Of a stretch of DNA of 30,616 bases, positions 20,514 to 26,671 are shown piece after piece (the first letter of the stretch is position 1; each line of letters starts with the position of its first letter). The stretch comes from a virus (Duplodnaviria > Heunggongvirae > Uroviricota > Caudoviricetes), in the IMG/VR virus record IMGVR_UViG_2671180357_000001, positions 1 through 30,616 of that record. One strand, given 5' to 3'. A program made the translations under genes and the position numbers. The notes beneath the pieces were generated by a model. The model ran no database searches, was not told the origin of the DNA, and saw only the letters and a list, made by a program, of their open reading frames with translations.

Positions 20514-20686
20514 TTCCTCGCACGATGTCTTAGCCACCGGATATCCCACAGGTGATCCGTGTAGTTGAAGGTTTTTACGTCAGATTCTTTTGGAATTGGC
20601 TTGCGTTTATTTCTGGAGCGTTTCGTTGGAAGGTATTTGCAGTTTTCGCAGATGATGTCGGTGAAACTTCGTCGCTGTCGTCTCAT
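20510..20686 (-). CDS. ninE: NinE-like protein
   Basis: 58-aa ORF absent from the track; [58 protein letters not shown] resembles recalled lambda NinE; ATGA overlap with the ninB stop. Confidence 0.6.
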
Positions 20687-21093
20687 TCGTACCTCCTGTC
20701 GGTAAATCTGACACCCTGACCAATAGCCCAGGCTGTTGTGTACTCGATCAGACTTGCCATACGCTTCACACTCATCTGCGCGCTGCTTTCGCGAATGTTG
20801 ACGTATTCGCCTTCAAGCCCGGGCAAAACATCAGCTTCCTGCTTTGTTGCCACTGCATGACCGCTTATCAACAAAACCTTCCATTGTTCTGGTTTTAACC
20901 ATTTATCGCGCCACTGAACTTGCCTGGCGATATCTGCGACCATCGCGTGAAATTTTGCGTTCTGGTCAAGGTTGCGCTTGTAGTCAGTAATGCGGATGGT
21001 AACTGGCTTGTCTTTATCGAGTGGTGTTGCGAGGATGGCGTTGATTGCGGCTTGCTGTTGTTGCTTAGTTCGGAGGAAGATTGTTTGCTTCAT
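20683..21093 (-). CDS. ninB: NinB/Orf-family recombination mediator
   Basis: ORF 20683..21147 trimmed to Met19 with GAGGTGA RBS; resembles recalled lambda NinB. Confidence 0.75.
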
Positions 21094-21125
21094 TGTCACC
21101 TCAACTAACAAAACGCCACGCCATT

Positions 21126-21281
21126 TTATAGGCTCCATCCATCCCATTTTCTCTCACCAAAAATATGCCTGTGCCATTCTTCCCGCTGCCGTCTCCATAG
21201 TTCCATCATGTCTGGCTGGTTCTTTTCTCGCATTTTTCGAATCTGCTCAAGGATGAACTCTATTTGCTGCTGATTTGTCAT
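21126..21281 (-). CDS. Small hypothetical protein (51 aa)
   Basis: Manually translated: MTNQQQIEFILEQIRKMREKNQPDMMELWRRQREEWHRHIFGERKWDGWSL; AAGGAG 5 nt upstream of the ATG. Confidence 0.4.
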   Translation of the reverse strand: MTNQQQIEFILEQIRKMREKNQPDMMELWRRQREEWHRHIFGERKWDGWSL

Positions 21282-21291
21282 ACTCACTCCT

Positions 21292-21507
21292 TTACTTTAA
21301 ATCCAGACTCCGAATAATTCTGTTGCGCTGAAACTCATTGTTGAGTTTGGACAACCGTCGAAGAACACGGTCACGCGGATAGCGTCGTGCGGCAGGTGAA
21401 TGCTCATACAACTCATCAAGCGGCAAACTGGACGATGAACGATACCGATACCAACGCACCAACTCTTCACGAAAATTAGCCCTGACAAGTTCAGCTATCG
21501 AACTCAT
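21292..21507 (-). CDS. Hypothetical Arg-rich protein (71 aa)
   Basis: ORF with GGAGG RBS; no family recognised. Confidence 0.5.
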   Translation of the reverse strand: MSSIAELVRANFREELVRWYRYRSSSSLPLDELYEHSPAARRYPRDRVLRRLSKLNNEFQRNRIIRSLDLK

Positions 21508-21596
21508 TTCTTAAAGCCTCCAATTACTCTCCCCCAAATAAAAAGGCCTGCGATTACCAGCAGGCCTGTTACAAGCTCAGTGATGTAGATGGTCAT
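21504..21596 (-). CDS. Candidate 30-aa hydrophobic micro-ORF linking helicase and the 71-aa ORF
   Basis: MTIYITELVTGLLVIAGLFIWGRVIGGFKK; ATG directly follows the helicase stop and its stop overlaps the next ATG as ATGA; a terminator hairpin lies inside it, so it may be non-coding. Confidence 0.25.
   Translation of the reverse strand: MTIYITELVTGLLVIAGLFIWGRVIGGFKK
21535..21567 (-). terminator. Rho-independent terminator downstream of the helicase gene (tR2-like position)
   Basis: Minus-strand perfect 8-bp stem AGGCCUGC/GCAGGCCU with 8-nt loop, followed by UUUUUAUUU. Confidence 0.6.
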
Positions 21597-23477
21597 TTAA
21601 TACTCCGTCACGTTTTCCTGTCGCCACGCCTCGTCATATTCCGATTTCGGCATATTGGCGATGTAGCTATATGGAGATCCTGATTCAAGTTGCAGGAACT
21701 GGTGCGATTGCTCGTCAAGGAACAACGGGACACCACCTTCCCAACCTTCGCCGTTACGTTGTTTTTCAAGCATCAAAACAGATGCCGGAGATGCCAGTAG
21801 CTGTTCGTCCTTCTCTGACATTTTTTCACCACTCTGAACTCTCTGTAACGCTCTCTCGCGAGCCTTGTTACGCCAGATGATGAAAAGGTTGTCTGTCAGG
21901 TCTGTTATCGCTCCAGAGCCTTTTACGTCCATTTTCCCGGTTGGTTTTTCTTCGCTGTCTCCTTTTCGCGAGTGAGTAACGAGAATGACGTGGGAGTTTG
22001 TTTTGTTTTTGAAGTCGCAAATCGAGTCAACAAACGCCTTCTGCCCGTTATAGTCATCGTCGCCTATGCCACATTTCATCAGGCTGTCGATGATGAATAA
22101 CTGGATCCCGTATCGGCGGCGAGCGTAGTCGAATATTTCGATCAGCCTGTCGGCTTTCGCCGTTCCGGTCAGGCCAAACACCCAAAGTCTTTCGTCATAA
22201 AATTTAAATGCAGAGTCAATTTCCAGCACTGGCGGCATCTTGCAGCACGTCGCCTGACGGGTAAGGCGCTTAAGGAGAATACCAGGCTTCAGCTCAAGTG
22301 ACGCGATGCACGTCTTCACACCCTGACGCATTGCCTCAAGTGCCATATGCCCGACAACCTCCGTTTTTCCGTGACCGTTCACACCATTGACCAGCGTCAA
22401 CTCGGCCTCACGGAACTGGAATTTATCTGCCAGAGATTCCCACGGTGGATTAAACAGATACTGCTGCTTGCCGTAGAAAGCGTTGATAGTGTCCTGGTAA
22501 AACTCTCGCGCGCTGTAGAGTTCTTCAGGATCGAAGTAGGATGCCGTGCCAATGTACTGCCAGATTTCATCCTCGGTAACACCGTTCATCAGGCATTCGT
22601 TGATGTCTTTGTACGGCAGAGTAACAAGACGGCAACGATGTTCACCGAGTCGGCTTGCGATTTCCCTTGCGGCTTCACGACCAACATCATCAACGTCCAT
22701 CGAGATAAATATTTCCTCAAACCTGTCGAGGTTGTGATACTCAAACTCAATCCACTGCTGCTTAGCGCCTTTCCCGCCACCAAACGGCACGGATAACGCC
22801 GAGATGCCGTATTGCGCATAGCTCATACAATCAATTTCGCCTTCGCAAAGTACAACTGCCCTCACGCCAGCGTCCAGAGCCTGCCATCCGAACAGACAAG
22901 GTTCGCAATCACCTTCTGCCATAATGACTTTCTTCCCGTCCGGGCGCTCAGTGCTGATTCGCTTGACCTGCAACAACTCACCATCGCGTTTGTACGGAAT
23001 CACCAGAGCATCCAGTTCCCGCTCTCCATTCCACACCTTGCCGCTGACAACCTCGTAGCGCTTTACGACTTCTGGCGATATGCCACGCGATTGCAGGTAC
23101 TCAAGATGGGATTCTGTCCTGGTAACGTAGCGGGCGATTTTCTTGCGATCAGGTCTGGAGAATTTCTTCTCACGTTTGGCATCGAAATGGTGATCGTCAT
23201 CCTTGATTCCGAGAAATGCTTTCGCTTCCTGCATCGCCTGATGCAGGTTAATTCCACGACATGCCATCCACAAATCAAGCATGTCACCGCCGTCTCCCTC
23301 AGCGAAATCAGCCCATTTTTTCTTGCCGCTAAGGTTGACCTTAAGGCTGTTTCCCTTGTCACCGTTGACGTTACCGGCAACCCACTCATGCCCCTCTTTC
23401 TTGCCGTTTGGCAACAGGTGCGGAGCCACCCTGTCAACCTGCGCCCAAAGCAGGTCGCTAAGTTCACTTGGCCTCAT
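21597..23477 (-). CDS. Bifunctional DNA primase/replicative helicase
   Basis: 626 aa; N-terminal zinc-binding/toprim-like region and C-terminal helicase with Walker A GVNGHGKT; occupies the lambda P / P22 gene 12 position. Confidence 0.8.
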   Translation of the reverse strand: MRPSELSDLLWAQVDRVAPHLLPNGKKEGHEWVAGNVNGDKGNSLKVNLSGKKKWADFAEGDGGDMLDLWMACRGINLHQAMQEAKAFLGIKDDDHHFDAKREKKFSRPDRKKIARYVTRTESHLEYLQSRGISPEVVKRYEVVSGKVWNGERELDALVIPYKRDGELLQVKRISTERPDGKKVIMAEGDCEPCLFGWQALDAGVRAVVLCEGEIDCMSYAQYGISALSVPFGGGKGAKQQWIEFEYHNLDRFEEIFISMDVDDVGREAAREIASRLGEHRCRLVTLPYKDINECLMNGVTEDEIWQYIGTASYFDPEELYSAREFYQDTINAFYGKQQYLFNPPWESLADKFQFREAELTLVNGVNGHGKTEVVGHMALEAMRQGVKTCIASLELKPGILLKRLTRQATCCKMPPVLEIDSAFKFYDERLWVFGLTGTAKADRLIEIFDYARRRYGIQLFIIDSLMKCGIGDDDYNGQKAFVDSICDFKNKTNSHVILVTHSRKGDSEEKPTGKMDVKGSGAITDLTDNLFIIWRNKARERALQRVQSGEKMSEKDEQLLASPASVLMLEKQRNGEGWEGGVPLFLDEQSHQFLQLESGSPYSYIANMPKSEYDEAWRQENVTEY

Positions 23478-24616: not shown

Positions 24617-24913
24617 TCAGAATTGCATATCAATTTGCTTAAAATCCTCGGTGGCGGCCGGGGATTTTTTCTTTGTGATTTCATCAAGCGCATACTTAAA
24701 AGCCCTGCTAATCGGACTGATGTCTGATGCCATTCCGAAAGCACACAAGACCGAAGCAATAAATCTCCAGTCCGTTCTGCTTATCTTCGATTCATGACAG
24801 CCAATCATCTTTGCCAAACCGCGCTGGGTAAGCGTTGACAGGTTGATGAGTAAATCTGTTTCTGCGCGATCAACGTCGCGCTGTGATAGTTTGCTGTAAC
24901 TTGTTTGTTCCAT
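24617..24913 (-). CDS. cII: CII-like transcriptional activator
   Basis: 98 aa; HTH region and C-terminal KKKSPAATEDFKQIDMQF resemble recalled lambda CII. Confidence 0.75.
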   Translation of the reverse strand: MEQTSYSKLSQRDVDRAETDLLINLSTLTQRGLAKMIGCHESKISRTDWRFIASVLCAFGMASDISPISRAFKYALDEITKKKSPAATEDFKQIDMQF

Positions 24914-26009: not shown

Positions 26010-26041
26010 CAGCCTCACCACTCTAAAACACACAACAATAA

Positions 26042-26069
26042 CCCGACCTTAGCGTCGGGTTTTCTTTTT
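26042..26069 (+). terminator. Rho-independent terminator after cI
   Basis: CCCGAC-CTTAGC-GTCGGG hairpin followed by TTTTCTTTTT. Confidence 0.6.
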
Positions 26070-26243: not shown

Positions 26244-26362
26244 AAACAGATACCAAACGAGATGGGTTTGGCGGTGATGTGAATTGCAGCTGCAACGACA
26301 GCAACCAGAAGATCAGCACCTGGCGCATCACCACCAAAGCCATTTCACATGAGGAAAATATC

Positions 26363-26671
26363 ATGACGGTAATCGTGTACGGGAAATCAACATTTGCAGG
26401 AAATGCCAAAACTCGCCGTCATGAGCGGCGCAGAAAGCTGGCTATCGAGCGTGATGCTATATGCAACATCATCGATTCGATCTTCGGCACAGACAGTGAG
26501 GAACCTGTTCAGGAAGCCCCGAGAAAACGTTTAATCCTTTCTGAAAAAGCAATATCACTCGGCAACATTCGTAACCAAAATACCGACGAATGCAGTGGAA
26601 GTATTTGCCTGCCAAACGTAGCTCTTTACGCGGCAGGCTACCGGAAATCAAAACAACTGACGGCGAGGTAA
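26363..26671 (+). CDS. N: Antitermination protein N, P22 gp24-type
   Basis: ORF 26279..26671 trimmed to Met29 (MTVIVYGKSTFAGNAKTRRHERRRKLAIERD...), an arginine-rich motif matching recalled P22 gp24; GAGGAAAA RBS. Confidence 0.75.
   Translation: MTVIVYGKSTFAGNAKTRRHERRRKLAIERDAICNIIDSIFGTDSEEPVQEAPRKRLILSEKAISLGNIRNQNTDECSGSICLPNVALYAAGYRKSKQLTAR

Follow-up and report, generated by a model that had tools for sequence, protein, structure and literature searches.

The locus at positions 21,504 to 21,596 of the window (the whole stretch of viral DNA analysed, 30,616 nucleotides) raises the question of why a strong transcription terminator should lie entirely within a short open reading frame that is joined, stop to start, to the genes on either side. 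The first-pass annotation of this DNA had offered two answers: a small membrane peptide, or a device in which ribosomes crossing the ORF modulate formation of the terminator alongside N antitermination. Judged from its sequence, the feature is the terminator tR2 of phage lambda inside ninA (lambda orf26), an element already known, annotated and experimentally studied.

Organization of the locus

The early-right operon of the window, as read from the sequence and the ORF list, is encoded on the minus strand, to which the coordinates below refer unless otherwise stated. The gene upstream of the micro-ORF (21597-23477, 626 aa) encodes a Toprim primase / DnaB-like helicase, as indicated by the ORF list and by the Pfam domains Toprim_2, AAA_25 and DnaB_C, and its counterparts in homologous records are labelled toprim domain-containing protein or DNA primase-helicase. 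The TAA stop codon of this gene (21599-21597) directly adjoins the ATG of the micro-ORF (21596-21594), forming TAAATG, while a Shine-Dalgarno motif, GGAG (21603-21606), begins 10 nt 5' of this ATG, within the 3' end of the helicase gene. The micro-ORF itself (21504-21596, 30 codons, MTIYITELVTGLLVIAGLFIWGRVIGGFKK) was identified as a ninA / lambda orf26 homologue from the ORF list, tblastn and PHROG. At its other end, the ORF list and the sequence show its TGA (21506-21504) overlapping the ATG of the next gene (21507-21505) as ATGA (21504-21507), and the Shine-Dalgarno sequence of that gene, GGAGG (21517-21521), is found in the sequence of the micro-ORF tail. The next gene (21292-21507, 71 aa) belongs to the DUF7301 family (Pfam PF23975, E = 1.2e-23; phrog_1785; RefSeq annotation). 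Both junctions are thus as the first-pass annotation had described them, and its suggestion of translational coupling is upheld by the stop-start arrangement at the two ends of the ORF. Its placing of the element between the helicase and the nin genes holds for the upstream side, but on the downstream side the neighbour is the DUF7301 gene, which bears no nin name, and NinB follows two genes later.

The terminator detected in the same stretch has the perfect 8-bp stem and U-tract previously claimed for it (21567-21536; terminator scan and inverted-repeat search). Its hairpin (21544-21567), which both searches found and which is identical to that of lambda tR2, comprises a 5' arm AGGCCTGC (21567-21560), an 8-nt loop TGGTAATC (21559-21552) and a 3' arm GCAGGCCT (21551-21544), with six G-C pairs among the eight and a computed dG of -15.1 kcal/mol. 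The terminator scan places the T-tract TTTTATTT (21536-21543) immediately after it, 5' of the micro-ORF stop codon, and a purine run GGGGGAGAG (21527-21535) forms the final conserved part of the block, as defined by alignment with lambda and with the block variants. Hairpin and T-tract are therefore wholly contained in the ORF (21596-21504), again as had been claimed, the hairpin occupying codons 10-18 of the 30. The distance from the micro-ORF ATG to the end of the T-tract is 57 nt, and the helicase stop lies 29-30 nt before the hairpin (30 nt by the definition of Li et al.).

The surroundings are those in which N antitermination would be expected to operate, as had been supposed. The gene order of the window is N, cI, CII, O, helicase, ninA/tR2, DUF7301, a 53-aa ORF, NinB, NinE, NinF, Rha/Ant, YbcO, RusA, Q and the lysis genes; N (N_peptide, Pfam) lies at 26279-26671 on the plus strand, Q (domain search) at 17900-18388 on the minus strand, and a Phage_rep_O domain is present in the early-right operon. 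This early-right layout is canonical for a lambdoid PR operon, with tR2 in its usual place, after the replication genes and before the nin and Q genes.

Identity with lambda tR2

Folding statistics alone would not prove terminator function here, because the generic terminator scan of the window has a high background, with 27 sites where shuffles would give 13.6, and the fold of 101 nt around the hairpin gives z = -0.83, a value that is uninformative for a short hairpin within a long context. The significance of the terminator therefore rests on homology, that is, on identity with lambda tR2 and on conservation. Hairpin and T-tract match lambda tR2 at 32/32 nt, and what had been called a strong "tR2-like" terminator is tR2 itself; the hairpin is also that of the tR2 oligonucleotides used in the experiments of Li et al. 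2016. The likeness extends over a block of about 70 nt, from the ATG to GGGGGAGAG, which differs from lambda 40567-40636 at three nucleotides, all in codons 5-9 (window/lambda: ATC/ATT, CTT/CTA and GTA/ATA). Read directly, lambda itself has the order ren-ATGA-orf26/ninA (26 codons)-ATGA-ninB, with tR2 within. At the protein level, tblastn against lambda 40568-40636 gave 22/23 identities (96% over residues 1-23).

The element is also widespread. Among 50,697 phage records searched by tblastn with the micro-ORF peptide, 427 were matched; database scans found the tR2 block conserved in hundreds of lambdoid phages, and about 36% of complete E. coli genomes have a match to the 700-nt region. A scan of genome contigs for the hairpin returned matches that were nearly all lambda-DNA contamination contigs and added no taxonomic breadth. 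The Rfam and tRNA scans of the window gave no matches.

The behaviour of this sequence in lambda is well documented: its termination efficiency in vivo is about 0.9 (PMC4824070), it serves as a standard terminator in vitro (PMC6624301), and in N- phage the transcripts that get past tR1 are described as ending at tR2 (PMC7084815). In the window, transcript 3' ends are expected in the T-tract at 21543-21536, a position that would follow from the general mechanism of intrinsic termination.

Previous annotation of the ORF

The micro-ORF matches the PHROG profile phrog_5907 (E = 4.4e-17) and has been named in several GenBank records. It is called ninA or NinA in those of P22, Sf101 and 24B; in HK620 ninA carries a "terminator tR2" feature inside it, and in phage 21 an ORF with "similarity to lambda Orf26" likewise has a terminator feature within. 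The ES18 counterpart, gp63, is annotated as "similar to P22 NinA", and the identical 30-aa product of PhiR12_1 (tblastn 100%) is labelled "NinA protein". According to the papers that cite it, the location of tR2 in ninA/orf26 was described with the sequence of the lambda nin region (Kroger & Hobom 1982). The first-pass annotation had been made without recognition that its micro-ORF was this named gene. As an element that is known, annotated in several phage records and already used by Li et al. 2016 for the study of ribosome-terminator interplay, the locus has a low discovery value; nevertheless, Pfam and NCBIfam contain no model matching the peptide and RefSeq/PGAP leaves the ORF uncalled, a reminder that this annotation omits ninA.

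Conservation in mosaic contexts

The comparison covered 209 copies from IMG/VR, for which the 5' part, the hairpin and the HK97-type variant each served as anchor in a scan of its own, together with reference phages; the GE_vB_TR variant was left out, its record being marked "UNVERIFIED" and showing homopolymer-length differences. The left edge of homology falls exactly at the micro-ORF ATG. Upstream of it, seven junction types were distinguished, involving about five unrelated gene families (ren, the P22 gp12-type helicase, DnaB-like P, the toprim primase-helicase and ES18 gp62 / 24B_14), and in all seven the upstream stop lies at most 4 nt from the ATG (ATGA, TGATG or TAAATG). The right edge lies just past GGGGGAGAG, beyond which 23 downstream junction types were found; in nearly all of these the ORF stop falls in the interval from -23 to +6 nt relative to the next start, the commonest junctions being ATGA or an 8-nt overlap. 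In lambda and P22, GGGGGAGAG is the ribosome-binding region of ninB. In the HK620-type junctions about 200 nt separate ninA from the annotated ninB, and coupling would there go to another small ORF, not to ninB.

The same comparison bears on the simplest reading of the locus, namely that the frame lies open over the terminator by chance and is untranslated. About 0.24 of random sequences of this length would stay open at 30 codons, and the lack of a RefSeq/PGAP call would fit such a frame. However, GGAG or GGGG begins 10-13 nt 5' of the ATG in 7/7 upstream junction types, whereas its frequency at control positions in the same genes is 1.8%; moreover, the ninA start codon is kept in all of the approximately 200 copies, stop-start coupling is found at both ends of the ORF, and the NinA start was functional in a reporter (Li et al., PMC4824070). 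An untranslated chance frame is accordingly barely credible.

The hairpin itself may be exchanged without loss of the frame. In 85 contigs, an HK97-type allele (HK97 gp56 / HK544) carries an unrelated stem (AGGGGCTATT / AGTAGCCCTT, dG -12.1 kcal/mol) that swaps exactly 18 nt, so that the reading stays in frame and the T-tract is still translated as LF(I/Y)W. The stems of the tR2-type and HK97-type alleles pair in registers offset by one nucleotide (i+j = 81 vs 82), and because of this offset the change of allele would be a replacement and not the outcome of stepwise compensatory evolution. Within each allele variation is slight. Two of the three stem variants (C32T and C50T) are synonymous and G.U-preserving, and Leu codon 8 is seen as CTT, CTA, CTG, TTA and TTG, never as TTT. 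One further variant (type C, MTIYITELIAGLSLLMVLTVYIIKYILYANKKTN) was considered as a terminator-less hydrophobic peptide and rejected: it is the 5' end of an AT-rich insertion that carries an HNH-endonuclease gene, and an intact tR2 hairpin follows 695 nt further on.

The comparison shows how sharply the block of about 70 nt stays conserved in mosaic contexts, and that start signal and reading frame are kept even where the hairpin is swapped. This pattern indicates that selection acts on the start signal, on the openness of the frame and on the hand-offs from stop to start; for the peptide sequence, beyond what the RNA elements dictate, the alignments do not clearly point to it.

Significance of the peptide

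On a second reading, NinA would be a small membrane peptide with a function of its own and a single transmembrane helix, and its coding sequence would have made room for the terminator. The peptide is indeed hydrophobic (mean Kyte-Doolittle value of 2.02 over residues 3-21, followed by basic residues) and is encoded in the sole open frame; the N-terminal MTIYITEL(I/V)TG is common to both hairpin alleles, and a PHROGs family, phrog_5907, exists. Furthermore, in the hairpin-anchored sample, codons 2-10 show 7 synonymous change types and 7 nonsynonymous ones, the latter all conservative, where 26% synonymous would be expected (p = 0.046). This excess, though weak, would also fit a selected peptide.

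Against this, residues 10-21 are fixed by the hairpin and the T-tract, and neither conservation nor hydrophobicity in that part needs selection on the peptide. The N-terminal 21 residues are conserved among the copies and the C-terminal tail is free to vary: after W21 it differs in nearly every junction type (GRGKS, GRVNRG, GRVIGGFKK, GGEK, IRNRVR and others), and ORF length ranges from 20 to 34 aa. A variable tail and length are not what a functional peptide would lead one to expect, nor are the disruptive alleles, which include L13Q in 8 contigs, a stop at W21 in one contig, an allele (L072) in which the ORF is fused in frame to a 100-aa gene, and a variant in which insertion of an HNH gene substitutes everything past codon 10. 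Neither Pfam nor NCBIfam models such a family, and lambda nin5 is viable although its nin region from ren to ninI, ninA included, is deleted. On balance, a membrane function for NinA is doubtful.

The hydrophobicity is most likely a by-product of in-frame reading of the G+C stem and the U-tract, since by the genetic code the stem reads GLLVIAG and the U-tract LFI, and the micro-ORF frame is the only one open.

Translation and termination at tR2

The interplay between ribosomes and this terminator has been addressed by Li et al. 2016 (NAR, PMC4824070), who placed lambda tR2 between RFP and GFP with the natural upstream lambda sequence as spacer; the lambda ninA-tR2 segment agrees with the window in hairpin, T-tract and 5' arrangement. 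Termination efficiency climbed with the distance from the stop codon to the hairpin (W8 0.25, W13 0.53, W18 0.73, W23 0.83 and W28 0.916) and was 0.15 when the stop lay 5 nt from the hairpin (W28p); with a stop codon at least 28 nt upstream, tR2 was not masked (PMC4824070). The W48 construct, which includes the NinA Shine-Dalgarno sequence and AUG, terminated with an efficiency of 0.721, and mutation of the NinA RBS or AUG raised this to 0.862 (W48-up1) and 0.870 (W48-up2) (PMC4824070). The authors concluded that the NinA start is "not weak" and that ribosomes do not repress a terminator located within the first 100 nt of an ORF (PMC4824070).

These results bear directly on the view that the locus is an attenuator, in which re-initiating ribosomes would trail the polymerase closely and block the hairpin, so that translation status would set the read-through alongside N, as in pyrBI and pyrE. 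The terminator does lie inside an ORF, and the start of that ORF is coupled to the stop before it; in the lambda reporter, read-through of about 13% becomes about 28%, roughly twice as much, when NinA is translated (efficiencies of 0.87 and 0.72, respectively, PMC4824070), and the near abolition of termination by stops 5-8 nt before the hairpin (W8 0.25, W28p 0.15) shows that ribosomes can in principle mask tR2. Nevertheless, the measured effect of NinA translation is small, and the authors argue that the first 100 nt of an ORF are too short a stretch for a ribosome to draw level with the polymerase (PMC4824070). The natural junctions, moreover, all have 26-30 nt between upstream stop and hairpin, which is the range in which repression is lost (W23 0.83, W28 0.92), and by the definition of Li et al. 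the spacers of the window (30 nt) and of lambda (26 nt) are both at or beyond the distance where ribosomal repression disappears. On inspection of the sequence, the nine codons before the hairpin (TIYITELVT) hold neither repeats of a regulatory codon nor a U-run at which the polymerase might pause; no pause site and no metabolite-sensing codon run is evident there, and classical genetics describes tR2 as a block to N- phage (PMC7084815). An attenuator is therefore unlikely. What stands of the earlier proposal of a ribosome-modulated terminator is a small effect on lambda tR2 (0.72 vs 0.86-0.87); the notion of a switch does not survive the W28 value of 0.92 (PMC4824070).

The measurements concern de novo initiation at NinA, not re-initiation by a ribosome ending at an overlapping stop (PMC4824070), which could be faster and could mask the hairpin to a greater degree than that measured. 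Moreover, their context is that of lambda, from which the window differs in having a primase-helicase gene in place of ren upstream and a TAAATG junction.

The same experiments suggest a further consequence of the geometry. When NinA was translated, upstream RFP was halved and RBS or AUG mutations restored it, which the authors attributed to non-stop mRNA and trans-translation; RFP mRNA measured by qPCR was only modestly lower, at 0.79 (PMC4824070). It may thus be asked whether, in the absence of N, transcripts terminated before the micro-ORF stop would stall ribosomes, recruit tmRNA and so hasten the breakdown of replication-gene mRNA. The 3' end predicted at 21543-21536 does precede the stop codon at 21506-21504, and the halving and recovery of RFP agree with such a trigger. 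However, the attribution to tmRNA by Li et al. is indirect, the fall in RFP mRNA is modest, and lambda, which has the same block, nevertheless plates on ssrA mutants, only lambda-immP22 hybrids needing tmRNA. Non-stop transcripts would then be a side-effect of the geometry, selection for such a role being unsupported, and a non-stop trigger is very unlikely.

More generally, the overlap might be functional in itself, either because NinA is a genuine conserved membrane peptide or because an ORF laid across tR2 deliberately turns every terminated early-right transcript into a non-stop mRNA; this broader proposition is quite improbable. Were its non-stop version true, trans-translation would clear ribosomes and shorten the life of replication-gene mRNA without N, linking tmRNA to lambdoid development; the reason why lambda-immP22 needs tmRNA is still described as poorly explained in the sense that it is not understood.

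Proposed role of the locus

The reading that best accounts for the locus, and that we consider probable, is that tR2, the terminator of the lambdoid early-right operon, lies embedded in the micro-gene ninA, is suppressible by N and is crossed by a translated ORF that couples its neighbours. [quoted passage not shown] The helicase stop codon, 29-30 nt before the hairpin, would uncouple the leading ribosome from the polymerase, so that the hairpin could fold in time, and re-initiation at the ninA ATG would be too slow for a ribosome to catch the polymerase over the 57 nt to the end of the T-tract. In the presence of N, the polymerase would read through, and ribosomes leaving the helicase gene would start again at the adjoining ATG, open the hairpin as they translate across it and finish where the following gene has its ATG. 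Ribosomes would in this way pass from gene to gene with no untranslated stretch in between, in keeping with the nin region's "chain of interlinked genes". Translation of ninA would slightly weaken tR2, reporter read-through being about doubled, which would amount to a modest modulation and not to a switch.

The function of ninA as a bridge is inferred from the architecture. We know of no phenotype of a ninA start-codon mutant. The chaining of genes by ATGA is typical of all lambdoid nin regions, as far as the work of Kroger & Hobom 1982 is reported in PMC8022706.

Comparison with known systems

The pyrBI and pyrE attenuators of E. coli likewise place a terminator inside a short translated ORF or at its end, and there too a ribosome close to the polymerase can block the hairpin (PMC4824070). 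In those systems, however, UTP-sensitive pausing of the polymerase lets the ribosome catch up and the regulation is large, whereas the window shows no evident pause signal of this kind, and lambda tR2 responds only slightly to translation of the ORF. By analogy with lambda, the weakness of the NinA-translation effect (0.72 vs 0.86-0.87) would argue against membership of the pyrBI type.

Closer relatives are found among the lambdoid phages. The allele of HK97 gp56 and HK544 gp48 shares with the window the first 10 codons, the coupling to neighbouring genes and the frame of the T-tract (LFYW vs LFIW), but carries an unrelated hairpin sequence in the identical 18-nt slot. Lambda tR2, in orf26/ninA (40567-40647), has the same hairpin, loop, T-tract and GGGGGAGAG as the window, the same position in the PR operon and stop-start coupling at both ends; within the first 23 codons a single residue differs (V9 in the window, I in lambda). 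The differences lie in the flanks and the tail: the upstream gene is a toprim primase-helicase ending in TAAATG in the window and ren ending in ATGA in lambda, the spacer from stop to hairpin is 30 nt against 26 nt, the ORF tail is VIGGFKK (30 aa) against GKS (26 aa), and the downstream gene is that of DUF7301 against ninB. Finally, the ninA genes of P22, HK620, Sf101, ES18 and 24B (phrog_5907) share with the window both the ORF family and the embedded terminator, only the mosaic flanks being different.

Variation in and around ninA

One rearrangement of the ninA region is the insertion of a gene for a 203-aa HNH_3 + AP2 endonuclease, located after codon 10 of ninA and before the tR2 hairpin (L118:3454-4180 among the collected loci; also loci L014 and L089, and Stx2 phage 1717). 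The homing target of this endonuclease may be the conserved ninA block. The inserted gene ends in a TAA stop codon placed 1 nt 5' of the hairpin and, since the efficiency of tR2 rises with the distance from stop codon to hairpin (Li et al. 2016, PMC4824070), this rule predicts that, in the phages bearing the insertion, translation masks most of the terminator's activity.

A different type of variation affects the terminator itself. In the HK97 gp56-type allele, found in phage HK544 (L152, 32472-32570) and in 85 IMG/VR contigs, a stem of sequence unrelated to that of tR2 occupies exactly the same 18-nt slot, and the first 10 codons of ninA, directly ahead of the swapped stem, are the same. One variant of this allele (locus L072) shows a compensatory pair change, from U-A to C-G, and its ORF is fused to the next gene through a 1-nt deletion.

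Upstream of ninA, phages of the 933W/24B/ES18 type have an additional gene, coding for about 90 aa, that separates ninA from the primase-helicase gene (24B 16342-16611, locus L002; ES18 gp62, locus L151). The end of this gene again overlaps the ninA start as ATGA, and the gene brings a GGAG of its own.

Database representation of ninA and tR2

The ninA ORF carries a name in curated phage records. In the RefSeq entry of E. coli TW10590 (L001:3304-3395) it was left uncalled by NCBI PGAP between the toprim and DUF7301 genes, and NCBIfam holds no model for it; as a result, ninA is absent from most RefSeq prophage annotations.

Exact matches to lambda tR2 were also found in public genome assemblies of Pseudomonas, Shewanella, Oceanobacillus, Bradyrhizobium and others, lying in low-coverage contigs of ~48.5 kb or in short contigs (loci L156, L159, L164, L168, L169, L173 and others). 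These are almost certainly contaminating lambda control DNA.

Other features of the window

The NinB ORF, as listed, spans 20683-21147 (minus strand). Its Pfam NinB match begins at residue 19, so that the ORF is 18 residues longer than the model at the N-terminus. The genuine start codon is probably the ATG at 21093, in which case the 53-aa ORF at 21126-21287 (phrog_18758) would be clear of overlap with NinB.

Further hairpins were located in the window. On the minus strand, the Q antiterminator gene (17900-18388) is followed, after ~340 nt, by the hairpin GCCCACCGCGCCGTGGGC and then TTTTTTATTG (17543-17560); this is probably tR', the late-operon terminator overridden by Q. The hairpin AACCCGAC...GTCGGGTT (26040-26061, both strands), with T-rich runs flanking each side, may be a bidirectional terminator; it sits between the N gene and the cI-like repressor gene. 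Finally, in antisense orientation to the 3'-terminal part of cII (24617-24913, minus strand), the plus strand carries a 12-bp stem with a T-run behind it (24641-24668); in lambda, the oop antisense RNA terminator has this position.
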